DNA of 32,569 nt from a bacterium (GTDB taxonomy: Bacteria; Babelota; Babeliae; Babelales; RVW-14): assembly GCA_043822925.1 (NCBI GenBank), contig JBDRBF010000013.1, positions 1 to 32,569 on the forward strand, in the 5' to 3' direction. This document shows positions 17,798 through 29,966 of the stretch, one piece after another. Every line of letters begins with the position of its first letter. The first letter of the stretch is position 1. The translations under genes were made by a program, and so were the position numbers. The notes below the pieces were generated by a model. It was not told the origin of the DNA and did not search any database. It saw only the letters and a program-made list of their open reading frames with translations.

Positions 17798-20700
17798 TTA
17801 AACCACTTGAGCCTTTTGCCGTGCAGCAACATCATCAGCAAGATAAACTTCTTTATGCGCCGCTTCAACCATCCCTGCAAGAACATTTGCCTTAAACTCT
17901 TGAGATACCAACGTTGTTTTACCAATCTTGCTTAACAAGTTTTCAAGTTTAGCCAGTTCAAACTTCTTATCACGGGGACGCAACGGGAACATTTCTTTTA
18001 TCGTCTTTTCAATTTTACGTTGCCCGGTCGCAAGCGTAGTCTCTCGAGGACGATTTACAATATTTTGAAGCTCTTCAAACTTCGTATAATAAGCAGAACG
18101 TAATTTTTTCTGAAGCGCCGGAGCCATTTTTTGAGCAACAAACGCTATTTGCTCTTTTGTCAGAACATCTGCTTTCTGAACTTGATCAAGCAATTTCTTA
18201 AGAGCATTCAGCGCTGGCACATCAGTAGCTCCTACCGTAGCACTTAGTTTTTGTAACACTTTGGCTATCTCGTTTTGTTGTGCTACGCCAAATTTACTCG
18301 TAGCCCCTTGTTCTATTATTTGTTTTATTGCAGCTATTTGCTGCACCAACGATTTACCCACTATTGCCTGATTGATAACGTGCACTGTTGGCGCTGGAGC
18401 TATTGTCTTTAAGATTTGCGCAAAATATGTTTTTTGTTCTGGCGAGATACTATTATTATCTGCACTAACAGCACTGGCAAGCATCTCTATTGCTTCTTGT
18501 TTTTCTTGATCTGTAAGACTACCTATATTATTTATAACTTCTTGCATCGCTTGCGCTATTGCATTTTGCGTTGCAGCATCTGGCTTTGTAAATTGCCCAT
18601 CACGCACTATGTGCTTAAGCGCTCCTGCTTGCTGAGCTACCGTTTTATTCGCAATAACTTGTGCAACAGATGCTACGGTCGCTGGCACCGTTACTGATGC
18701 TATTGTTTGCTTAAACGATGCTTTTTGCGCAGGCGATAAACTTGTATTTTTGTCTTGTACCGCTTCTATTAATAATTGACGCGCTGTTTCCTGTTCTTGT
18801 GGCGATAACTGAGTCCAGTTAGTGACGATATTTTGTAACGTCTGCGCAACAACAACTTGTGCTTTTGCATCTAACTTACTTGCTTTACCTGCTCCCACTA
18901 TTTTTTGTAACGCAACTACTTGCTGTGCTGGTGTTTTACCCGCGACAGCTTTCGTCACTTTTTGTGCTGTTGGCGCAACGACTTTAGTTACTTTTGTTTT
19001 TGCTTTTGCTCCTGGCGCTGGAGCTATTGTCTTTAAGATTTGCGCAAAATATGTTTTTTGTTCTGGCGAGATACTATTATTATCTGCAGCTACAGAATTA
19101 CTAATAACCTGCAACGCTTGCTGCTTTTCAACTTCTGTAAGATTAGACCAATTATTAACAATATTTTGAATAGCTATTGCTACTGCATCTTGAGCATTAG
19201 CATCAAGCTTTGTTCCAACACTATTACCAACAATTTGCTGCAATGCAATAACCTGCTGCCCGGGTGTTTTACCCTGAACAGCACTTATTACACGCTCTTT
19301 CGTTGGAACAGGAGCAACTGTTTGCAGCAAATTTTTAAAATATTGTTTTTGCTCTGAAGTTAAAATATTACTTGGCGCACTTAATGCATTACGTACCGTA
19401 TCAAAAATATCTTGTCTTTCAAGCAACGTTACTTTATCAAGATTTTTAAGCATCGCATCAAGTACTGATGCTACAGCATTTTTAGCCGCAGCATCAGGCT
19501 TTGTTATTTTTGAATTCGCAACAATCTGATCTATTGCATCTGCTTGCTGACTAATCGTCTGATTTTGTGTCGCCTGAGTTACTATTTCAGCTGTTGGCGT
19601 TTTAACCAACGTTGGTGCAACTTGAGTTGCAATATATACTTGCTGAGCCGGCGCAAGTGCAGAACTTACAGCAGCAGCATCAAGCATTTGTTGGTACCGT
19701 AAAAGTGTTGGCGCATTCATTTCTAACAAACGAGAACCTACTTGTTGTATCGCCTGTGCATACGCATTTTGCGTAGCAGTATCAATAGTTCCAACACCCA
19801 TACCAGCACTTTGCATAAGAGCTTCAAGAACATCGATTTGTTTAAGCACTGGCAACTGAGTAATAACCTGAATCATCGCTGGCGTAGGAACTGAACCAAG
19901 CGATGGCAACAACGTCCCAAGCACATACCCCTTTTGCTCAAGATCAAGCAATTTACCAAGCACTGCCTGATTAAGAAGTGTACCCAAACCAGCAAACGCT
20001 GCTGGATCTATATCACCAGAAACATCAACCATATTTTCAAGCGCTTTAGTTAAAGACTCACTGGTTACAGTACCAAGTGGCATATCTTTACCAACGGTAA
20101 CAACCTCTTGAAGCGCTGCTATTTTTGCCGCTGAACTAGACTGAGCCATTGCCTGCTCAATTTTTGCACCAGTACCAACAAGTTGTTCACGTTCACGTTG
20201 CAACGCGGGGATTAAATTATTCTTCAAATAAGCAATTTGTCCGGCTGAAAGCGTATTACTATTTGCTGAACTAATAAGCAAATTAATCAAAGCATCGAGC
20301 AACTCAATTTTTTGAACAACCGACAAAGTAACCTGAGTCACAACAATTTTTTGCTGCTGAGCACGTGTCGCTTTATTTTGTGCTAATTTTTTTGTAAGTT
20401 TTTTAGTTACTTTAGCTTTTTTCGCTTTTGCAGGAACCTTTACAGGCTGCACCTGTTGTGCTTGTTGCACTTGAGACATTACATAACGATCGTTATATAA
20501 TGTTTGTAACGCTTGAGCATATATATTTTGTATCCGACTAGAAAATACTTTATCTCCAACAGACTGCAATAACGCAAAAATCGCTTTTATTTTTTGCAAC
20601 GTCGTTAACTGAGCCATTGCAGCTGCAAGCGCAGATTCAAAAGCACGTTCATCTTGAGTTGAAGCTGCAACGCCTAATTGTCCAAGTCCAGTAAGTTGCG

Positions 20701-23700
20701 CAATACGAGGCAATCCACTTATATCTTGAGCTTGTGCTCCTGGCATTGAAAGTAACCCTGATTGATCAGCCGTTTTTTTACCCAACGCATCGGCCATAGA
20801 CAAACCTGGTTGCGTTAAGCCTGACGTTGTTATTGCAGGCATAGCAGAAGCGCCACGTGCTTTATCTCTATCTGCAACCAATGAACCAAGTAAAGACGTC
20901 TTAATATTTTGCTGCATTTCAGGCGTTAAAAGTAAACTATTTTGCAATCTACCAAACAATGTTACAAGACTACCAAGAACCGCCGGATCAAGAGGCCGCG
21001 CTTGATACAAATCTTGCAAAGCTTGTGATAACAATTTCTTTACTGATGGATCAAGAAGATCAATAAACGCTTTTGTATCTTGTTGTGAAAGAGCATCAAG
21101 AGCTTGTAATTTGCCCAAATACGTTGATTGGCCAAGGGCGGCAACAATTTGATCTTGTAAATTTCTGGCACCATATTCTTGCGCGATCACTGGAATTAAT
21201 GACCCTGTAATTTGTTGACGCTGAACTAACGGAATTAATGGATTATCTTTAAGAAGATCAAGCATATTGCTCAAATCTCTAAGCCCAGCGGTATCAGTTG
21301 GTCTTTCTTTAAACGATTTATCAACAAGCTGCGCCATAAGCATTTGAGTTTTTGGATCAGTGGTCGTTAAATCTGAAACTTGCCCTATTTTTTGAGCAAT
21401 CGCTTGTAGAGCTCCTAAATTAGATACAGGGTCAGAAGGCTTTGTGAGCGCCTGTTGCGCAGCTATTTTTACATCTTCTTTGGCAAGCGACGGCAGCAGT
21501 GTACCAACAATAGATGTTTTCATATTCTCTGGAATAGACGAACTCAATTTAGCACTATCAAGAACCCCTGACAACGCACCAAGAGCTGCTGAATCTGTTT
21601 TTGGACGACTCGTATAAAGTTGCTGTAATGCATTACCAATAATTGTTTTAGTATCAGGCATTATTAACTGCCCGCCCGCTTGCTGACCTTCAACCTGTTG
21701 CATATATTTCTGCAAATCAACTAAACGATTTTGATAATCAGAACCAGATAAAACCGGCATTTTCAACAAACCATTTACACCTTCTTGAATCGTCTTATTT
21801 AGTTGTTCTTGCCCAACAACTGTCGTCATATCTTGCAATTTTGCCGGATCAAGTGAAACTATTGGATTATCTTTTAATTGTCCCAATAAACTTTGCAAAT
21901 TACCAAGACCAGCAGCATCAGTTGGACGACCGGTATAAATTTTATTAAGTAACTGATCAATTAAATTCTGTGTATCTGAATCAAGAACTTTTCCACCTGA
22001 TCCATCAAGCAACCCCTTGAGCGTCCCCATATTTTTTTGTGCATCACCAGGCAGTGTTAACGCATTTTTGAGTTCAGCTTGTGCTTTATCTGATACAAGC
22101 CCTGGCAACATAATTTGATTAATACCTATTTTAAACTGATCAAGCAATAACGTATCATCTTTAAGTTTATTTAATAAATCTTCAAGACTTTTAAGTACTG
22201 CAATATTATCTTTTGGACGCGCATCATATAATTGTTGAATAAGACGCGCAAGCAACTGTTTTATATCATCGGGAAGTGTTTGGCCTAATAACTGATCAAT
22301 AATATTCTTCAAAGCTGCCAAACGTTGGGCATAATCAGCGATAGCCAAAATCGCATTAATACGGTCACGCAAATCTTGCGCTTGCTTATCTTTATTAACC
22401 TCATCAAGCACGCTTTGATCAATCGATATTAATTGACCAGTCTTTAACTGTCCCAACAAATTTTGTAATTTACCAAGCGATACTGAATCTTGAGGACGCA
22501 AACTAACCAATTGATTTGTTGCTTGTTGCAATAAATCTTTCGTTACAGGATCAAGCACAAGCCCTTTAGATTTATCTAAAACATTTTGCAAAACCCCAAG
22601 CCCAGCAACAGAATCTTTACCTGCAATAATACCATTAAGCATCTTATTAATATCAGCAAGCTGTTTATCAAGCACAAGTTCTGGCAAAATTGTTTTGCCC
22701 ATATTAACCAAGAAACTTGGCGTCAATAATGGGCTGGCTGTAAGACCGGTTAATAAAGATTGCAATTGTCCAAGCACATCAAGATCATTTTTGGGACGAT
22801 CGTTATACATCTTTTGCAACGCGTCAGAAATAAGGCCTTTTATTGTGTCACTCAAACCCTTGCCCTTAAGTTCATTTAAAAACACCTGTAAAGCCGCAAG
22901 ACGTTGCGCATAGGTATAATCAGGATTTGTTAAAATATCATTAAGTTTATTTTGAATATCAAACTGCTCTTTTTCTTTATTAAGTGCAGGCAATAACGTT
23001 GCATTAATTTGAGCCTTTAGTGCCGGCGTAATAAACGCACTATCTTTTATACTATCAAACAATGCTTTTAACTGAGCAAGAACATCAACATCACCTACCG
23101 GCCTATCGCTATATATTTTTTGCAACGCATCAGATAATAAAACACTCAATGCAGGATCAAGAATTTTTCCGGCCAAATCATTTATAAATGCTTGTAACGC
23201 TGCAAGACGCTCTTTATAGTCGGCTATCGCCATAATTTTGCTAAGTCTATCTTGGAAATCAAGTGCAGCTTTTTCTTTTATTAGCGTTGGCAAAAGAATA
23301 CCAATAATATCTAACTTAAATGCTTGCGTAAGTAATGGACTATCTTTAAGCCCTTCAAGCAAGCCTCGTAATAATTCAAGCGCAGCTACATCAGTTTTTG
23401 GACGTACATCAAACTGCCCACGTAACATATTTGATAATACCAACTGTGTTGGCCCATCAAGAACAACACCAGTTAAACTACCAAGATAATCTTTTAACAA
23501 TCCCAACCGAATTTTATAGTCAGGATTTGCAACAATTGTATTTAATTGCGTTTGAACTCCAAGCATTTTTTTGTCTTGCCCAACAGTTGCAAGCATCCCG
23601 GTCAAAGCTGTTTTCTGTTCAGCTAAAAGTAACGGGCTCGTTAACGCTTTATTAAGTAACGCTTCAAGACTCGTTAAACTTTCAAGATCTGTTTTTACGC

Positions 23701-25108
23701 GATTATTAAAAAGAGCGACAAGAACATTATTTAATATTTTTTGAGTTACATCACCTATTTTTTTATTGGCCTGCTTATCAAAAACATCAGCCAACGCCGT
23801 TAACTTTGCGCCATACGTAGCGCCAGCTATAGCCTGCTTAATAGCATCTTGCACAATCGCATCAATTAACTCTTGGACAAGCACCGACAACTTTGCCGTG
23901 ATTTCTGTTTTTTGAGTGTCAGAAACAAGCATAGTACCAAGAACTCTATTAAATAAATCACGCAAAGAAGTTAAAAGAGAAATTTGCCCCGTCCCTCGTT
24001 GAGCAAACACAACATTAAGAATCGCAAACAAAAACGCTTGAGCCGTTGTTGAAACACCCAACTGTGTATATGTATCACAATAACTATTAAGCGCCGTAAT
24101 TATTGCATTAATATCTCGCAACTTATAAACATTTATTAATGCCTGCTCAGGAGCCATTTGACTCAACATTCCTGCTATTTCGGCCTGTTTTGCAGACGCA
24201 AGCAACGGTGTCTTTTGAGCATCTGTGAGATACACTAATAATAAATTTATTTGAGCCACCGATTTATCTAAACGCTTACCAAACATAAGTATAGGTGCTG
24301 GCGCATAAATATCTTGCGTAATTTTGCCAAAAGTCTTAGCCGCATTTGCACGTTGAATGGCCGTAAAATCTTTAAGCTGGGCATCAAAATCAACATTTTC
24401 TAAAGCAATTCGTATACGATTCTCAAGCGATACAATCTCAAAATATTCTTTTACTTTTGACTGCTGATCCGCGTCAAGCAATGGCGTTGTCTGAGCAAAT
24501 TGTAAAAACTTTAACAAATAAGAAATCGCTTTATCTTGCCCGGCACGATCATCAAACACGGATGTCGTTTTATTAAAATAAAACGTTTGAACAACAGGAG
24601 CAAACTCAAGTTTTACAGCCCCTGGCAAGACGGTACTCAATTTACGAACCCGAGGGATATAACCATCAGTCTCTTTTGCCTCAAAAACAGCCGATTCTAC
24701 CTCGGTTGCCTGCTGAAAATTACTAATAACTGTTTTTTGCGTCGGCGATAAAAAATTACTCTCCTGAGCCGTCTGAAACAACACATTCAGATAATCAATA
24801 TCTGGATTTATATTTTTAGCTAAAGCTGTACTATATTGTGCAATGCGCAAGTTATACACTTTATTTAACGCATCAAAGCATACTTTTTGCGTTGTCGCAT
24901 CTGGATTAGTATCTACCATTTCATTCAGAGCATCATTAAAATCAATTACCTGACTATCCCAATCATCATAACTCCAAATTTCGTTAATACGACTTTGCAA
25001 CGCAGCCTGACTCGTTACAGAGGTCATAGAAAAAACAGATCCAAAAATTAATGTAAAAAAAGATAAAACAAAAAATAAATGCCGAACCAATTTTCTTGAG
25101 ACTTGCAT
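17798..25108 (-). CDS. Giant (2436 aa) secreted alpha-helical repeat protein
   Basis: AGGAG SD; signal ends VFS|M. About 23 imperfect ~90-100 aa repeats (consensus like DYxxRLxAL...LDxxTQxLLxxALQxLYxxRPxxD...SPLL...LLPxL). Confidence 0.9.
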   Translation of the reverse strand: MQVSRKLVRHLFFVLSFFTLIFGSVFSMTSVTSQAALQSRINEIWSYDDWDSQVIDFNDALNEMVDTNPDATTQKVCFDALNKVYNLRIAQYSTALAKNINPDIDYLNVLFQTAQESNFLSPTQKTVISNFQQATEVESAVFEAKETDGYIPRVRKLSTVLPGAVKLEFAPVVQTFYFNKTTSVFDDRAGQDKAISYLLKFLQFAQTTPLLDADQQSKVKEYFEIVSLENRIRIALENVDFDAQLKDFTAIQRANAAKTFGKITQDIYAPAPILMFGKRLDKSVAQINLLLVYLTDAQKTPLLASAKQAEIAGMLSQMAPEQALINVYKLRDINAIITALNSYCDTYTQLGVSTTAQAFLFAILNVVFAQRGTGQISLLTSLRDLFNRVLGTMLVSDTQKTEITAKLSVLVQELIDAIVQDAIKQAIAGATYGAKLTALADVFDKQANKKIGDVTQKILNNVLVALFNNRVKTDLESLTSLEALLNKALTSPLLLAEQKTALTGMLATVGQDKKMLGVQTQLNTIVANPDYKIRLGLLKDYLGSLTGVVLDGPTQLVLSNMLRGQFDVRPKTDVAALELLRGLLEGLKDSPLLTQAFKLDIIGILLPTLIKEKAALDFQDRLSKIMAIADYKERLAALQAFINDLAGKILDPALSVLLSDALQKIYSDRPVGDVDVLAQLKALFDSIKDSAFITPALKAQINATLLPALNKEKEQFDIQNKLNDILTNPDYTYAQRLAALQVFLNELKGKGLSDTIKGLISDALQKMYNDRPKNDLDVLGQLQSLLTGLTASPLLTPSFLVNMGKTILPELVLDKQLADINKMLNGIIAGKDSVAGLGVLQNVLDKSKGLVLDPVTKDLLQQATNQLVSLRPQDSVSLGKLQNLLGQLKTGQLISIDQSVLDEVNKDKQAQDLRDRINAILAIADYAQRLAALKNIIDQLLGQTLPDDIKQLLARLIQQLYDARPKDNIAVLKSLEDLLNKLKDDTLLLDQFKIGINQIMLPGLVSDKAQAELKNALTLPGDAQKNMGTLKGLLDGSGGKVLDSDTQNLIDQLLNKIYTGRPTDAAGLGNLQSLLGQLKDNPIVSLDPAKLQDMTTVVGQEQLNKTIQEGVNGLLKMPVLSGSDYQNRLVDLQKYMQQVEGQQAGGQLIMPDTKTIIGNALQQLYTSRPKTDSAALGALSGVLDSAKLSSSIPENMKTSIVGTLLPSLAKEDVKIAAQQALTKPSDPVSNLGALQAIAQKIGQVSDLTTTDPKTQMLMAQLVDKSFKERPTDTAGLRDLSNMLDLLKDNPLIPLVQRQQITGSLIPVIAQEYGARNLQDQIVAALGQSTYLGKLQALDALSQQDTKAFIDLLDPSVKKLLSQALQDLYQARPLDPAVLGSLVTLFGRLQNSLLLTPEMQQNIKTSLLGSLVADRDKARGASAMPAITTSGLTQPGLSMADALGKKTADQSGLLSMPGAQAQDISGLPRIAQLTGLGQLGVAASTQDERAFESALAAAMAQLTTLQKIKAIFALLQSVGDKVFSSRIQNIYAQALQTLYNDRYVMSQVQQAQQVQPVKVPAKAKKAKVTKKLTKKLAQNKATRAQQQKIVVTQVTLSVVQKIELLDALINLLISSANSNTLSAGQIAYLKNNLIPALQREREQLVGTGAKIEQAMAQSSSAAKIAALQEVVTVGKDMPLGTVTSESLTKALENMVDVSGDIDPAAFAGLGTLLNQAVLGKLLDLEQKGYVLGTLLPSLGSVPTPAMIQVITQLPVLKQIDVLEALMQSAGMGVGTIDTATQNAYAQAIQQVGSRLLEMNAPTLLRYQQMLDAAAVSSALAPAQQVYIATQVAPTLVKTPTAEIVTQATQNQTISQQADAIDQIVANSKITKPDAAAKNAVASVLDAMLKNLDKVTLLERQDIFDTVRNALSAPSNILTSEQKQYFKNLLQTVAPVPTKERVISAVQGKTPGQQVIALQQIVGNSVGTKLDANAQDAVAIAIQNIVNNWSNLTEVEKQQALQVISNSVAADNNSISPEQKTYFAQILKTIAPAPGAKAKTKVTKVVAPTAQKVTKAVAGKTPAQQVVALQKIVGAGKASKLDAKAQVVVAQTLQNIVTNWTQLSPQEQETARQLLIEAVQDKNTSLSPAQKASFKQTIASVTVPATVASVAQVIANKTVAQQAGALKHIVRDGQFTKPDAATQNAIAQAMQEVINNIGSLTDQEKQEAIEMLASAVSADNNSISPEQKTYFAQILKTIAPAPTVHVINQAIVGKSLVQQIAAIKQIIEQGATSKFGVAQQNEIAKVLQKLSATVGATDVPALNALKKLLDQVQKADVLTKEQIAFVAQKMAPALQKKLRSAYYTKFEELQNIVNRPRETTLATGQRKIEKTIKEMFPLRPRDKKFELAKLENLLSKIGKTTLVSQEFKANVLAGMVEAAHKEVYLADDVAARQKAQVV
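18389..18464. repeat. 76-bp exact direct repeat, copy 1 (copy 2 at 19013-19088)
   Basis: Identical nucleotide string encoding ADNNSISPEQKTYFAQILKTIAPAP in two repeat units. Confidence 0.95.
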
Positions 25109-25316
25109 AACGATTTCTCCTTTTTAATGAGAATACTTTTCAAAAAAATAAGTCTATTAAATTTCAGTTTATTCAACTTTTGTAATATATCGACTTTTTT
25201 TTACGTTATGCAAGAAATGGAAATAAGAAACAAAAAATACATGAAATTAAATTTAACCTGAGATTTACATCTGCCATAAACACATAAAACGACAACCGGC
25301 TCAACCCCCTAATTAA

Positions 25317-26330
25317 TCACAAGAAATTATCGTATCCATCAGCAAAAACAGGCACAACTTCGTTATTATACGTATACTCAATTCCAGACGTTTTTTGCGT
25401 AACTCGTCCGATTTCCCATAATGGTGACTTAAACTTTTCTTCATATTGTTTGCGAATATATTCAAACTTTTTTTTATCAATAGTCACGAACAAACAATAA
25501 TCTTCGCCTCCATTAAGCGCCAAATGCAACGGGTCCCACGTAAAAATCTTTGATATTTTTTTCAACTGAGCAGAAATCGGAAGTTTTGTTAATTCAACCG
25601 AAAAGCCAACGCCAGCAAGTTCACTCATCCATTTAACCTCACCTCCAACTCCATCAGAAACATCGGTCATACCATTAACACCAGCTTGTCTGGATAACCA
25701 TTCACCTTCTTCAAGATAGACATGCGGGCGGTAATGGGCATTTACTAAATAACGCGTAACATCTGAATGTACTAAGTGATTCTCATCTAATATTAATCTT
25801 AACCCTCCACCACTATCACCAACGTAACCAGTAACACAAACAACATCGTCAACTTTAGCGGCTGAAATTAATTTTGCGTCAGTTTTTGCAACAACCCCCA
25901 TCATAGTCATATTTATAACAATCACCGTAGACCGTATCGTATCGCCACCAATAAGCACGACATTATATTGTCCGGCCAAATACTTAAAACCACTTAAAAA
26001 ATCATTAAGCCACTCGGACGATGTATCACGGGGCAAACCCAACGATAGTGCTACATATTTTGGACGGCCGCCCATTGCGGCAATATCACTCAAATTAGCT
26101 GCAAGCGCTTTATAGCCCAACTGATAAGCGGAAATACGGTCTTTCAAAAAATGAGTATGTTCAACAAGCATATCAGTTGAAATAATATCAAACATATTCG
26201 AGTCATTATCACGCATAACAATTGCACAATCATCACCAATGCCCTTAATAATATGACTTGAAGGTTCAGTAGAAAATTGTGATACGATATTTTTGTATAC
26301 ACCCATTTCACCAATTTTTGAAAGGTTCAT
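25317..26330 (-). CDS. thiL: Thiamine-monophosphate kinase-like protein (PurM/ThiL family), divergent
   Basis: GIGDDCA, STDMLVEHTHF, NLSDIAAMGG, GGDT, DVSDG, GGEDY, terminal GYDNF; adjacent to the thiE-like gene. Confidence 0.85.
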   Translation of the reverse strand: MNLSKIGEMGVYKNIVSQFSTEPSSHIIKGIGDDCAIVMRDNDSNMFDIISTDMLVEHTHFLKDRISAYQLGYKALAANLSDIAAMGGRPKYVALSLGLPRDTSSEWLNDFLSGFKYLAGQYNVVLIGGDTIRSTVIVINMTMMGVVAKTDAKLISAAKVDDVVCVTGYVGDSGGGLRLILDENHLVHSDVTRYLVNAHYRPHVYLEEGEWLSRQAGVNGMTDVSDGVGGEVKWMSELAGVGFSVELTKLPISAQLKKISKIFTWDPLHLALNGGEDYCLFVTIDKKKFEYIRKQYEEKFKSPLWEIGRVTQKTSGIEYTYNNEVVPVFADGYDNFL

Positions 26331-26344
26331 AAACGCCCTTTTAC

Positions 26345-27028
26345 TTATAAAGCCTCTCTATTTGCAACACTAACGACACATCGTAAATCTTTTACCTGCT
26401 TGATCGTCATCGCAAGCTTACAAGCCGCATTTTCAGGATCCGGTTGATGACAAATAGCTGAAACTACTGCAATGCCATCAGCTCCAGCAGACATAACATC
26501 TGCAACGTTATATTGCGTTATGCCGCCAACAGCAACAAGTGTTTTTTTTGAAATTTTACGCAATCGTTCAAGTCCCTCGAGTTGCCAGGCAGGACGATTA
26601 ACAGGACGAGTTAATGATGGGAAAATTTGGCTTACCTTAAAATAATCAACGTCATATTTCTCAGCTTGAATAGCATAACTTATATTTTCAACCGTCAAAC
26701 CAATTATCGCATCCGGCCCCATCAACCTACGCACATCTGCATACGGCATATCGGTCTGTCCAATATGTACACCATCTGCTCCACTAGCAAGCGCTATATC
26801 AACTCTATCATTTATAATTAATGGTATCGAAGTTCCAGCGAGCAATTCTTTTATTTTAGTCGCTTTTGCGATAACCTCGCGAATACTTACCTGTAAATCA
26901 TTTTCACGTAATAAGATTACCGTCACGCCACCGCGTATTGCTTTATGAATTACGCTTTCCAATATTCCCGGAACAGTTACCGTATCATGCGTTACCATAA
27001 ACAATGAATAATCAACAAGCTTCTTCAT
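26345..27028 (-). CDS. thiE: Thiamine-phosphate synthase-like protein (ThiE/TenI family), divergent active site
   Basis: LIINDRVDIALASGADGVHIGQTD, AVGGI and GADGIAVVSAI are present. QLREK reads LLREN and TxTK reads SLTR. Confidence 0.85.
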   Translation of the reverse strand: MKKLVDYSLFMVTHDTVTVPGILESVIHKAIRGGVTVILLRENDLQVSIREVIAKATKIKELLAGTSIPLIINDRVDIALASGADGVHIGQTDMPYADVRRLMGPDAIIGLTVENISYAIQAEKYDVDYFKVSQIFPSLTRPVNRPAWQLEGLERLRKISKKTLVAVGGITQYNVADVMSAGADGIAVVSAICHQPDPENAACKLAMTIKQVKDLRCVVSVANREAL

Positions 27029-27096
27029 GGTTTTCTACTCTTAGTTTTTGTGTTTTTTGTACAACTTTTTTCCCAAAAATTCACACATCTCCAAGT

Positions 27097-27124
27097 AGTA
27101 TGCACCCAAGTTTTGGCGTGTCAA
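27097..27124 (-). promoter_or_regulatory. Putative sigma70 promoter of thiE-thiL
   Basis: TTGACA-16 bp-CATACT on the minus strand, about 70 nt upstream of the thiE ATG. Confidence 0.5.
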
Positions 27125-27144
27125 TCACACGAATTTTTTTTCAC

Positions 27145-28446
27145 TTAAATAGACTTAGGAAACATAGATTTACAAGAAAAAAACTCAGGCAATTCAAGCT
27201 TTTCATGCTTATTTGCGCCTACTTCTTTATCACAATTAGAAAGCCGTCGTTGTTTCTCTTTTCTCTGATTCTGACAAAACTGTCCATATTTAAAACGCTG
27301 CGAATTAAACGCACCTTCTTTTACAAATTTTCCATTTACACATAATTCAGGCAATACAACATTATCAATCCCATCAATCCCATCAATCCCATCAAATTCG
27401 TCAAATTCGTCAAATTCACAAATCTCAATCTCTATCTTCTTTTTATTTTTTTTCTTAAATTCTCCAGGAACAGCCGGCTTCTTTTTTTCTACCGAAACTG
27501 ATGCAACGGTTCCATTTTGCCATGTACGATCAATATCCGAATACGTACAACCACGTAGCTCACAAAAATCCAACCCCTTCATTTTTGGATCAACATTATA
27601 ACCAAAAAGCTCTTTCAGTTGCGATTCTAATTCTTCATAAAATTCTAACGTGACAAGAATAGGCAACCTAACTGGCCCATTTTTAAATTGCCATCGATAT
27701 TTAGTCATTGACTCGGATCTACTCCCAATATTTAAATCGCTTCCTACGTCAACAATCTTGACTCCATCACGAATTACCATATCGAAAAATCCACAATGCA
27801 TACCGTACCCAGCCTCAATATCTTCCCATTTCTTCTTGCCTTTTTCCCGCGTCTTAAATAATCGCAACTCCTGTACGATTTTTACTGCACATTTTACCGA
27901 TCGACCACAAGCTTCTTTTCGCCCGCACTCTTCTTCACTAAAATACCCAAATACCCCATCCCCCATTGTATTTTGCACAACCCCTCCATGTCTCTCAATT
28001 ATCAGCCTTATCAGCGTATGATAATAATCCAAAAATGTGCCTAACGACACGAGCTCATTAATTGATCCATATGTAAAATAAAATTCTTTATCTTTATATC
28101 GCTTACAAAACGAAGTAAAATTGCGCATATCTATAAATAAAATACCCCCAAATCCACGCTCAACATCACTTAATTCAACAAGACTTTTAACATCAGAATC
28201 AAGTGGCTTCTTTTTCTTTTCTTTATTAAAACAATTATTTTTCTGACGTTCTTTAAAATATTCAGGATCAACTAAAAGCCTCTGCGGAGACCTTGCCCGA
28301 AATGGCATTCGAGGAAGAAACTCATCATCACCAGCATTTGAACTAAACGAACTTCTTCGAGAATCTGGATCTAAAAACATGCCAAAAACACTATTTTCAC
28401 TCAAGAACAAAACAAATAAAAACAAAACAAAATTCTTAGACTTCAT
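27145..28446 (-). CDS. Secreted class III nucleotidyl (adenylate/guanylate-type) cyclase
   Basis: GGAGG SD, start MKSKNF, signal ends VFG|M. FIDMRNFT and MGDG carry the metal-binding Asps; GMHCG; NIGSRSES carries the catalytic N and R. Confidence 0.85.
   Translation of the reverse strand: MKSKNFVLFLFVLFLSENSVFGMFLDPDSRRSSFSSNAGDDEFLPRMPFRARSPQRLLVDPEYFKERQKNNCFNKEKKKKPLDSDVKSLVELSDVERGFGGILFIDMRNFTSFCKRYKDKEFYFTYGSINELVSLGTFLDYYHTLIRLIIERHGGVVQNTMGDGVFGYFSEEECGRKEACGRSVKCAVKIVQELRLFKTREKGKKKWEDIEAGYGMHCGFFDMVIRDGVKIVDVGSDLNIGSRSESMTKYRWQFKNGPVRLPILVTLEFYEELESQLKELFGYNVDPKMKGLDFCELRGCTYSDIDRTWQNGTVASVSVEKKKPAVPGEFKKKNKKKIEIEICEFDEFDEFDGIDGIDGIDNVVLPELCVNGKFVKEGAFNSQRFKYGQFCQNQRKEKQRRLSNCDKEVGANKHEKLELPEFFSCKSMFPKSI
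27364..27417. repeat. 9-bp microrepeats in the cyclase tail (EFDEFDEFDGIDGIDGID)
   Basis: (atcaatccc)x3 followed by (tcaaattcg)-type x3. Confidence 0.9.
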
Positions 28447-28471
28447 AGCGCCCCCTCCAGAAAATATCAAT

Positions 28472-29155
28472 TTAATTTTTCACGATTTCTTTACACATAC
28501 CACAAAGAACCCCAAATACCTGCACGCCAAATACCCGAACCCCATAAAAACGTCTAAAAGCTGCACGCACAAAAACATACGCAACCGTGCTGCCAGCAGC
28601 AAACACAAATCGCTCAAGCGCAACAACAGGAATTAACGCAAGCCACTGTGCAGCAACCATAGGGACCATATATAAACACATAACACTGCCAACAGCATGT
28701 GCTATAAACGTACTACTTAAAGCTGTCAAAAAGATAGAACCTACACTAAATTTTGTACCACCCTGCTTACCAAGCCCCAAAGCGTTAACCACATAAATAA
28801 TTACGGGAATAACCCAATAAAAAGAATAAACAAACGCCTGCTGGCCAACAGGATGCACCATAAATAAAAACATACATAATACCGGCAACACTAAACTCAC
28901 TAAAAAATTTAAAACCTGAGTTAAAACCCGAGATCGAACCCAAGACTGAGCACTCTTTATATTAGAATTCGTATCAAAAGCCCACTTTGCACTAGCAAGT
29001 AACGTCGGCACCCCCCACGTAACTAACCCAAAACCTAATACTTTACGTGCAACAAAAAACGTAAATAATAAACCAGTCGCTCCAACAAAACCAAATAAAC
29101 TGCCAGCAAGTGGCACAATAAGATTTAACAAAGAAAATATAACTAATTTCTGCAT
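28472..29155 (-). CDS. Polytopic membrane protein (~6-7 TM), possible solitary vitamin-uptake/ECF S-component-like protein
   Basis: GGAG SD; highly hydrophobic 227 aa with polar intramembrane motifs HPVG, STFIAHAVGS and IPVVALER. Function is inference. Confidence 0.7.
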   Translation of the reverse strand: MQKLVIFSLLNLIVPLAGSLFGFVGATGLLFTFFVARKVLGFGLVTWGVPTLLASAKWAFDTNSNIKSAQSWVRSRVLTQVLNFLVSLVLPVLCMFLFMVHPVGQQAFVYSFYWVIPVIIYVVNALGLGKQGGTKFSVGSIFLTALSSTFIAHAVGSVMCLYMVPMVAAQWLALIPVVALERFVFAAGSTVAYVFVRAAFRRFYGVRVFGVQVFGVLCGMCKEIVKN

Positions 29156-29267
29156 TTTTTCTCCAATCCTTTTTTACACGTTCACCTATTTACACCACAC
29201 ATAAAATACACATATTTTATTATACATCAATCAGATAAACGTATAAAAATAATCAAGAAAAATTGTC

Positions 29268-29311
29268 AAAAAAAAACGGTGCACGCTATCCCGAGGGACA
29301 ACATGCACCGT
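29268..29311 (-). terminator. Rho-independent terminator
   Basis: Minus strand CGGUGCAUGUUGUCC-CUCG-GGAUAGCGUGCACCG (G-U pairs) followed by a run of 9 U. Confidence 0.9.
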
Positions 29312-29387
29312 GTAAAAATTCTCACTTAAGACTTTATTGTGCTACTTATATTTATATAAAATAACTATTAAATCTTACGTAAATTAT

Positions 29388-29966
29388 TTATTTTGCTTTC
29401 TTAACTAAGTTAACCCATTTTGCTACTGCTTGCTTCTTTTGCAATATTGATGCTTTATTGGAATAGAAATAATTATCCCAACCAGCACTTTTGGTCATAA
29501 CAGGCAATATTTCTTTTTCATGTGCTACATAAAACTCTTGATATTCAAGCGTCCATGTAGAAAAATCTCGAGCATCAAGCTCTTTTACTATTTTTTCTTG
29601 AATCGTAACTTTTGCTTCTTCTTGAGATTTAACTTTTGCTGGGCGCGCTTTTCTTAATACTTCAAGTACCTCTTTTGATGGTGCTTGTTTCTTTTCTTGC
29701 ACTTTCTCTACTTCTGTTACAACCGGGTTAACTACCGGAGCTGTTACAACAGGAGCAACAACTTCTTTAGGCGAGGCAACAACACCTTGTTTTACTACAA
29801 AAGCATTATCATGAGTACGGAAGCAACCGCATGAAATCGCATGCATAAACTTCTTGAACGAACCTTCTTGTATTTGAACTTCTTGCTTGGTAGCCTGAAC
29901 AGACATTCCTGAAATAGCCATCAAAGTAGCCATAACAAATGTTTTTGACAAATTCTTCTTTATCAT
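29388..29966 (-). CDS. Secreted hypothetical protein with Pro/Val-rich linker
   Basis: Start MIKKNL with GGAG SD; signal ends VQA; followed by a terminator. Confidence 0.75.
   Translation of the reverse strand: MIKKNLSKTFVMATLMAISGMSVQATKQEVQIQEGSFKKFMHAISCGCFRTHDNAFVVKQGVVASPKEVVAPVVTAPVVNPVVTEVEKVQEKKQAPSKEVLEVLRKARPAKVKSQEEAKVTIQEKIVKELDARDFSTWTLEYQEFYVAHEKEILPVMTKSAGWDNYFYSNKASILQKKQAVAKWVNLVKKAK

Follow-up and report, generated by a model that had tools for sequence, protein, structure and literature searches.

We analysed a 32,569-nucleotide contig (JBDRBF010000013.1; hereafter the window) from the genome bin of a Babeliales/Dependentiae-like bacterium, in which two adjacent genes on the minus strand encode a protein of the thiamine-phosphate synthase (ThiE) family and a protein of the thiamine-monophosphate (TMP) kinase (ThiL) family. 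The thiE-like open reading frame (ORF) spans positions 26345..27028 (227 aa) and the thiL-like ORF spans positions 25317..26330 (337 aa), a gap of 14 nt (26331..26344, also on the minus strand, by ORF coordinates) separating the end of thiE from the beginning of thiL. Our analysis favours, at somewhat short of an even chance, the reading that this pair is a selected, remodelled terminal module of thiamine pyrophosphate (TPP) synthesis that would be fed by host-derived phosphorylated precursors. We arrived at this reading because the two proteins are the sole TPP-forming enzymes found in a genome that needs TPP and is unable to make hydroxymethylpyrimidine pyrophosphate (HMP-PP) or thiazole phosphate. 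The bin holding the window (G000) measures 1.52 Mb and is 92.46% complete, and a second pair-holding genome (G018) is 58% complete; the genome-wide absences described here rest on these incomplete bins. The closest matches to the asparaginyl-tRNA synthetase (AsnRS) encoded in the window are proteins named Candidatus Babeliales (70–73%) and Candidatus Dependentiae (67–69%), and these names underlie the taxon used here.

According to this reading, the pair would complete the cofactor from phosphorylated intermediates of the eukaryotic host: ThiE would join the pyrimidine pyrophosphate to thiazole phosphate, and ThiL would phosphorylate the resulting TMP via an intact multi-metal ATP site. In the sub-lineage to which the window belongs, the pyrimidine/pyrophosphate half of the ThiE pocket would have been remodelled (Gln57Leu and Gly131Lys, and later Lys61Asn and Lys159Arg in the window), with the Mg and thiazole-phosphate half left intact. 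ThiL would have been remodelled at three conserved basic or polar positions (Arg155Ile, Trp at position 234 and His335Asn). These changes would represent altered affinity or specificity that is tolerated or favoured when flux is very low, rather than loss of function.

Identity and active-site composition of the two proteins

The preliminary description of this locus, made from the sequence alone, had recognised near-canonical ThiE and ThiL scaffolds, and our analysis bears this out: both ORFs were exact and both products passed the cut-off of the corresponding NCBI equivalog model. Window ThiE scored 179.0 bits against TIGR00693 (cut-off 145.1) and 177.7 bits against the Pfam family PF02581 (TMP-TENI). 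On the TIGR00693 scale, canonical neighbours scored 205–210 bits, the G018 protein 195.7 bits, and the two metagenome relatives described below 186.3 bits (P0002) and 178.7 bits (P0003). Window ThiL scored 266.7 bits against TIGR01379 (cut-off 184.15), compared with 289–306 bits for canonical relatives; its Pfam matches were AIRS and AIRS_C, and related models scored much lower (selD, 69.4 bits; hypE, 57.4 bits). The top solved relative of window ThiE was Bacillus subtilis ThiE (E 4.5e-29), and those of window ThiL were ThiL chains, such as that of Acinetobacter baumannii (PDB 5cc8; E 1.6e-38). The AlphaFold2 models, each predicted from a 20-row alignment, reached a predicted local distance difference test (pLDDT) score of 90.1 for ThiE and 89.9 for ThiL. 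A Foldseek search with the ThiE model, which adopts a TIM barrel, returned the ThiE structures 1xi3 and 2tps at the top, with template modelling (TM) scores of 0.81–0.86. We also considered whether the ThiE-like protein could be a TenI and rejected this identity, since the protein scored 92.9 bits on the TenI model NF005819 (cut-off 251) and TenI ranked 42nd by structure, behind all ThiE entries. The two genes were the sole ones over the ThiE and ThiL cut-offs in G000, and the canonical thiE and thiL copies that the preliminary description had proposed to look for elsewhere in the genome were not found there.

For residue comparisons, window ThiE was mapped onto B. subtilis ThiE by pairwise alignment, and B. 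subtilis positions are marked Bs; we take the chain index plus 8 to be the usual B. subtilis numbering. The comparison set was composed of 146 ThiE and 197 ThiL homologues from outside the clade defined below, with identical sequences collapsed, and was drawn from the listed protein-search matches together with locus ORFs that matched their own hidden Markov models (HMMs) at E ≤1e-20. A broader ThiE set came from the exhaustive search described below: of 149 representatives of clusters at 50% identity, 108 single-domain sequences were kept and 41 were excluded for being fusions or of unsuitable length.

Window ThiE shows important differences from these homologues. Bs Gln57, present in all 146 homologues and in 106 of the 108 representatives, is replaced by Leu39, and leucine occurs at this position in none of either set. 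The position of Bs Lys61 (lysine in 146/146 and 96/108) is occupied by Asn43, followed by a two-residue insertion, and that of Bs Lys159 (146/146 and 104/108) by Arg141. The glycine of the DYxG motif, found in 140 of the 146 homologues, is replaced by Lys131, a residue seen there in none of the 146 homologues or the 108 representatives. Further replacements affect Bs Thr156 (Ser138; threonine in 145/146), the aspartate of the VTD motif (His14; aspartate in 141/146) and a proline (Gln134; proline in 127/146). All the changes that had been described at the QLREK, DYxG, proline and TxTK positions were thus recovered, and the residues that they displace are near-invariant (127–146 of the 146 homologues). 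The VTD-to-VTH change stood less firmly: although the aspartate is common among the 146 homologues, it is not universal, being present in 79 of the 108 representatives and missing from B. subtilis ThiE itself. A Ser130-to-Thr difference is a normal variant (14/146 and 23/108).

The remainder of the ThiE site is preserved. Window ThiE keeps Bs Arg59, Asn92, Asp93, Asp112, Thr158, Gly188 and Ser209; the last six of these account for the Mg2+ ligands and the thiazole-phosphate site, all intact, and their retention agrees with the N-D, second Asp, GG and VS motifs having been listed as unchanged. Of Bs Gln57, Arg59, Lys61 and Lys159, which we take to be the pyrimidine/pyrophosphate contacts of ThiE, Arg59 alone is retained.

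In ThiL, the most conspicuous change is at the linker arginine of the K-x-R-S motif, Arg155, which is present in all 197 homologues and is replaced by Ile155. The C-terminal histidine of the D-H-F motif, His335, is found in 187 of the 190 homologues with a residue at this position and is an asparagine (Asn335) in the window. Position 234, occupied by arginine in 108 and histidine in 80 of the 197 homologues, is a tryptophan, and Asp231 (185/197) is replaced by Glu231. Pro204 of the PxP motif (proline in 143 and alanine in 46 of 197) corresponds to Val204, and Phe9 of the GEF motif (182/197) to Met9. The earlier calls of GEF to GEM, loss of the LRSGA arginine to isoleucine, and changes at PxPR, DL.H and GYDNF were therefore all found against the 197 homologues; the reported EDYE-to-EDYC deviation was not one, as cysteine is the majority state (115/197).

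The metal-binding aspartate motifs of ThiL had also been described as intact, and all were kept. Window ThiL retains Asp33, Asp34, Asp53, Asp82, Asp130, Asp223 and Asp226, along with Thr131, His60 and Ser225, and its GDD and SDG loops are intact. The available text of the PaThiL report (PMC13254938) gives the metal, adenine and TMP contacts as Asp30, Asp47, Asp75, Asp122, Asp211 and Asp214, Thr123 (adenine) and His54 (TMP). We assigned these contacts to window ThiL by motif rather than from a published alignment, and on this mapping all of them are retained. The suggestion that the two proteins form a pseudoenzyme pair is accordingly unlikely for ThiL, in which every metal, adenine and TMP contact that the text gives for PaThiL is preserved. 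The linker arginine and the C-terminal histidine are not mentioned in the available portions of the AbThiL (PMC6416309) and PaThiL (PMC13254938) papers.

Relatives, origin and constraint

A search of 5.8 billion proteins identified only three ThiE and three ThiL sequences close to those of the window. The ThiE relatives share 69% (P0002), 70% (P0003) and 56% (P0004) identity with the window protein, the next match having 54%, and the ThiL relatives share 65% (P0122 and P0123) and 54% (P0124), the next match having 46%. P0004 and P0124 are the products of the adjoining thiE and thiL genes of G018, which overlap by 4 nt. P0002 and P0123 are encoded on one 11.6-kb JGI contig. An exhaustive search of 1.84 billion representatives returned one close ThiE cluster. 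Single-protein scans of genome and metagenome contigs detected no relative; scans with the clade alignments recovered the G018 contig and canonical ThiE loci for ThiE, and only loci of 30–41% identity for ThiL.

In both the ThiE and the ThiL tree, the four sequences form one clade, with Shimodaira–Hasegawa-like approximate likelihood ratio test supports of 99 and 100, and the inner topology is identical: the window sequence groups with the two metagenome sequences, which pair with each other, and G018 lies outside. We refer to all four as the clade and to the window and the two metagenome relatives as the sub-clade. ThiE Gln57Leu and Gly131Lys, and ThiL Arg155Ile, Asp231Glu and the loss of His335, are present in the sub-clade, and G018 is canonical at these positions. 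ThiE Asp14His, Pro134Gln and Thr156Ser and ThiL Pro204Val occur in all four clade members, G018 included. ThiE Lys61Asn is confined to the window among the four, and Lys159 is an arginine in the window, a lysine in P0002 and G018, and an aspartate in P0003, whose ThiE is also without one invariant histidine. The preliminary description had asked whether relatives share the substitutions, and for Gln57Leu, Gly131Lys, Arg155Ile and the loss of His335 three of the four clade members do. Its description of the remodelling as coordinated holds in that the changes in both enzymes co-occur, yet the derived states appear from the trees to have arisen on one branch of one small clade, so that coordination rests on a single evolutionary event.

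The pair is rare in the phylum. Among 261 phylum genomes, ThiE over the cut-off was found in two, G000 and G018, and ThiL likewise. A third ThiE-like match, in locus L106 (G221:C45:353-2537; 115 bits in a 531-aa frame), was rejected as probable contamination of the bin G221, because the guanine-plus-cytosine (GC) content is 74.9% for its contig and 42.1% for a second G221 contig. The next-nearest proteins (54% identity for ThiE and 46% for ThiL) come from Bacteroidota, Ignavibacteria and Acidobacteriota metagenome bins, and in both trees the clade is nested within an Ignavibacteria/Bacteroidota group. Three loci in Ignavibacteria/Bacteroidota bins (L087, L088 and L091) show the gene order thiM-thiE-thiL, followed by thiC or thiD-tenA. 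The GC content of the pair (0.388) is near that of the genome (0.373). Because only two of 261 phylum genomes hold the pair and its nearest kin reside in Ignavibacteria/Bacteroidota operons, we take the pair to be an old, ameliorated, horizontally acquired fragment of an operon of the thiM-thiE-thiL-thiC/thiD type. It was taken up by an ancestor of a small lineage within one Babeliales/Dependentiae family, with vertical inheritance in G000 and G018 since. This acquisition by a host-dependent bacterium had been missed in the preliminary description.

To place the divergence of the pair within that of the proteome, G000 was compared with 21 G018 contigs (~97 kb), which yielded 46 reciprocal best pairs. 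ThiE and ThiL are 55.6% and 54.5% identical between the two genomes, and the median of the 46 pairs is 57.4% (10th–90th percentiles, 36–71%). Among 24 of these pairs, hand-picked across the identity range, nonsynonymous divergence (dN) ranged from 0.11 to 0.83, with thiE at 0.405 and thiL at 0.414; synonymous divergence (dS) came out at 1.87 or higher, or could not be calculated, for every one of the 24, which leaves the dN/dS ratio between the window and G018 uninformative. Conservation was followed by column. Columns conserved in at least 95% of the family were identical among the three sub-clade members at 39 of 45 positions in ThiE and 45 of 51 in ThiL, compared with 17 of 51 and 62 of 152 for columns conserved in less than 50%. 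In substitution-only neutral simulations (1000 runs), the frame stayed open in 6.8% of runs for thiE and 0.2% for thiL at half the divergence of the sub-clade, and in 1.4% and 0% at the full divergence.

From the ordinary divergence of the pair for this proteome, the saturated dS and the continued conservation of the conserved columns, we conclude that purifying selection maintains the pair and that decay is unlikely. Strain-private changes with a dN/dS ratio near 1 had been named as the signature of simple decay; instead, three of four clade members share the changes and the pair is under purifying selection. Random decay likewise fits poorly with divergence at the proteome median, with the gradient of constraint across columns and with neutral simulations that rarely keep the frames open. 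The sub-clade also offers a natural experiment, in which proteins without ThiE Gln57 and without the ThiL linker arginine persist under selection.

Metabolic context and readings of the pair

No gene for ThiD, ThiM, ThiC, ThiG or thiamine pyrophosphokinase (TPK) was found in G000, and thiD and thiM were not found in G018. The absence of thiD and thiM from the window, already pointed out in the preliminary description, therefore extends to the whole 92%-complete genome. A transketolase gene in G000, truncated by a contig end, scored 805 bits (cut-off 488), so the cell needs TPP, and as the pair is the only recognisable route to TPP in G000, its substrates must come from outside. TPK exceeded its cut-off in two of 35 family genomes (loci L147, G021:C72, and L148, G001:C37), neither of which holds thiE-thiL. 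Routes to TPP are patchy and differ between close relatives, and most relatives, without any of these routes, would presumably take up ready-made TPP. Dependentiae are regarded as feeding on metabolites of their hosts, and keeping only the last two, acquired, steps to TPP would imply access to the phosphorylated vitamin B1 intermediates of the host. To our knowledge, such use of host phosphorylated intermediates has been proposed for insect symbionts and never shown. Among the listed papers that pair thiamine with Dependentiae, none was on this topic.

Two genes upstream of thiE, positions 28472-29155 (minus strand) encode a 227-aa multi-pass membrane protein that resembles the S component of energy-coupling factor (ECF) transporters (feature score 0.88; structural TM 0.71) and has no Pfam or NCBIfam match. 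We considered it as part of the thiamine module and rejected it, because 32 of the 35 family genomes encode it and no EcfT was found in G000. It may serve as a stand-alone vitamin importer across the family.

Several observations weigh against a host-fed, functional TPP module. Uptake of HMP-PP, thiazole phosphate and TMP is assumed, as we identified no transporter for any of them, and 259 of 261 phylum genomes do without the pair, which makes its benefit not obvious. Because G000 is 92% and G018 58% complete, missing genes could lie in gaps. Residues that are invariant in 146–197 homologues have been replaced, and ThiE Lys159 has been hit twice independently within the sub-clade (arginine in the window and aspartate in P0003); together with the histidine loss in P0003, the Lys159 hits suggest that constraint on the pyrophosphate side of the enzyme has been relaxed. 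At the 45 columns conserved in at least 95% of the family, ThiE keeps only 34–36 in all four clade members, and other homologues keep a median of 45 (5th percentile, 42). The corresponding ThiL counts are 45 of 51 in the sub-clade and 50 of 51 in G018, and HMM scores drop in the same order as the conserved-column counts. Finally, the RNA-library contigs described below are no proof of transcription.

Some of the same observations would fit a shift in substrate, which we consider unlikely. Here, the sub-clade ThiE would couple an altered pyrimidine-like or other electrophile to thiazole phosphate, and ThiL would phosphorylate the analogue or a less charged acceptor. Radical changes at otherwise invariant residues do fall in both enzymes of the same three lineages, with G018 canonical at those positions; ThiE has gained a lysine (Gly131Lys) that none of the 146 and 108 homologues has, three basic or polar ThiL positions have become Ile, Trp and Asn, and selection persisted after these changes. 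However, neither a candidate analogue nor a gene to make one is at hand, the pair has no new neighbour of its own (the membrane protein encoded upstream is widespread in the family), and the transketolase still needs ordinary TPP. The shared changes, mapping to one branch, are a single event with no replication. In addition, the TMP pyrimidine ring is solvent-exposed in ThiL according to the available text on AbThiL (PMC6416309), and therefore a new pyrimidine would not obviously require changes in ThiL. We give still less credence to the proposal that in the sub-lineage both enzymes changed together to make or activate something other than ordinary thiamine phosphate, which could possibly take the form of a cofactor analogue whose pyrimidine part is modified or taken from the host, or of a ThiL acting on a less charged acceptor. 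The thiamine-analogue pathway raised in the preliminary description found no positive support.

It is comparably doubtful that ThiL alone matters, converting host TMP to TPP, with ThiE non-catalytic or differently used and carried on the same transcript. This would account for the unequal state of the two proteins, ThiE being derived in all four clade members and the G018 ThiL canonical, and for the independent single-lineage hits on ThiE Lys61, Lys159 and an invariant histidine. It would also agree with the fact that no source of HMP-PP or thiazole phosphate was found in G000, the substrates having been lost with thiM and thiD. Nevertheless, an unused gene in a reduced genome should be deleted or broken, and all four thiE copies have stayed open at this depth of divergence; conserved ThiE columns hold within the sub-clade far better than variable ones, ThiE retains its Mg ligands and thiazole-phosphate site, and ThiL itself is without its invariant arginine in the same sub-clade.

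The weakest alternative, that both genes are functionless remnants decaying slowly and that the substitutions are random damage, is very improbable: the loss of invariant residues in both proteins, the precursor genes not found in G000, the absence of the pair from 259 genomes and HMM scores below those of canonical kin (ThiE, 179 vs 205–210 bits; ThiL, 266.7 vs 289–306 bits) speak for it, but identity lies at the proteome median, dS is saturated while dN is ~0.41, constraint grades strongly across columns, neutral simulations seldom preserve the frames, the frames are intact in four lineages for each protein, and both AlphaFold2 models are predicted with high confidence.

We therefore retain, as our preferred reading, a remodelled terminal TPP module fed by the host. 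If the pair instead proved to have a shifted product, it would add a new two-step branch to the vitamin B1 metabolism of a bacterium that lives as a parasite inside protist cells; if the enzymes prove ordinary, the locus comes down to a modest example of a reduced genome gaining genes by transfer.

Expression signals, neighbouring genes and comparison with known systems

The 116-nt spacer upstream of thiE holds a promoter-like site (TTGACA-16-CATACT) at 27124-27097 on the minus strand (27097..27124), a consensus match only, at 10 of 12 positions. The statement that the pair has its own promoter is upheld to the extent of this site; on the other hand, the region contains fewer promoter-like sites (6) than the mean of shuffled sequences (9.8). 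A TPP riboswitch had been reported as absent, and we agree: RF00059 gave no match at E up to 1 within 24500-29500, no Rfam family matched the leader, and no TPP riboswitch was found in the whole of G000.

Contigs from RNA libraries (two metatranscriptome runs of two studies) match the window with 0 differences at 25435-25635, 26171-26385 and 26968-27116. The second of these crosses the thiE-thiL junction, and the third takes in the thiE start and 88 nt upstream of it. Because the third contig reaches upstream of the predicted -10 element, read-through or DNA carry-over is possible, and it suggests read-through from the cyclase-like gene described next, transcription from an alternative start, or a library containing DNA. 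DNA contigs from two other public runs also match piecewise with 0 differences and cover all named changed codons except that of ThiL Ile155.

Directly upstream of thiE, positions 27145-28470 (minus strand) encode a 441-aa protein with no Pfam match, for which language-model features (0.94) and structure both indicate a resemblance to class III adenylate/guanylate cyclase domains. It contains an N-terminal hydrophobic segment, lysine-rich stretches and a DEFDEFDEFDGIDGIDGID repeat, and may be a secreted cyclase-like protein. Downstream of thiL, positions 17798-25108 (minus strand) hold a 2436-aa ORF with many helical repeats of ~90 residues and an N-terminal signal-like segment. Elsewhere in the window, positions 8001-9000 have a GC content of 0.50, compared with ~0.37 in the rest, and overlapping ORFs lie on both strands at 8316-9885.

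Compared with characterised ThiE enzymes (TIGR00693; PDB 2TPS from B. subtilis and 1XI3 from P. furiosus), the window protein shares the fold, the Mg ligands, Arg59 and the thiazole-phosphate site and passes the family cut-off. It differs from them in Gln57Leu, in Lys61Asn with the two-residue insertion, in Lys159Arg and in the replacement of the DYxG glycine by lysine and of the VTD aspartate by histidine. Its setting also differs, as neither a thiD nor a thiM partner was found in G000. The TenI thiazole tautomerase (PDB 1YAD), a paralogue of ThiE, has the same fold and an equally placed phosphate-binding site (TM 0.72), whereas the window protein keeps the ThiE Mg ligands.

Window ThiL has in common with other ThiL proteins (TIGR01379; PDB 5CC8/5DD7 from A. 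baumannii, 8YKS from P. aeruginosa and 3C9T from A. aeolicus) the set of metal-binding aspartates, the adenine threonine, the TMP histidine and the SDG loop, and it likewise passes the family cut-off. It departs from these structures in having isoleucine in place of the invariant arginine and asparagine in place of the C-terminal histidine. Relative to PaThiL, the residue aligned to His222 is a tryptophan and that aligned to Asp219 is a glutamate.

The nearest sequence kin of the pair are the thiM-thiE-thiL operons at L087, L088 and L091, with 46–50% tblastn identity for ThiE and 44–46% identity for the nearest ThiL homologues. These operons have the same thiE-thiL order with near-abutting genes and carry all the canonical residues. 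The window pair consists of the two middle genes only and is flanked by Dependentiae genes, and neither the kinases nor ThiC were found in G000.

In its metabolic setting, the pair resembles the tsetse symbionts, which, according to the available text of Belda et al (2010; PMC3091646), have been proposed to exchange HMP-PP and thiazole phosphate and to finish synthesis with ThiE/YjbQ and ThiL. These symbionts are likewise host-restricted, have an incomplete pathway and would use terminal enzymes fed with phosphorylated intermediates from another organism. The genes described in that text are what vertical descent has left of a complete Enterobacterales pathway, whereas the pair described here is an acquired fragment, with remodelled active sites, in a protist-associated phylum.

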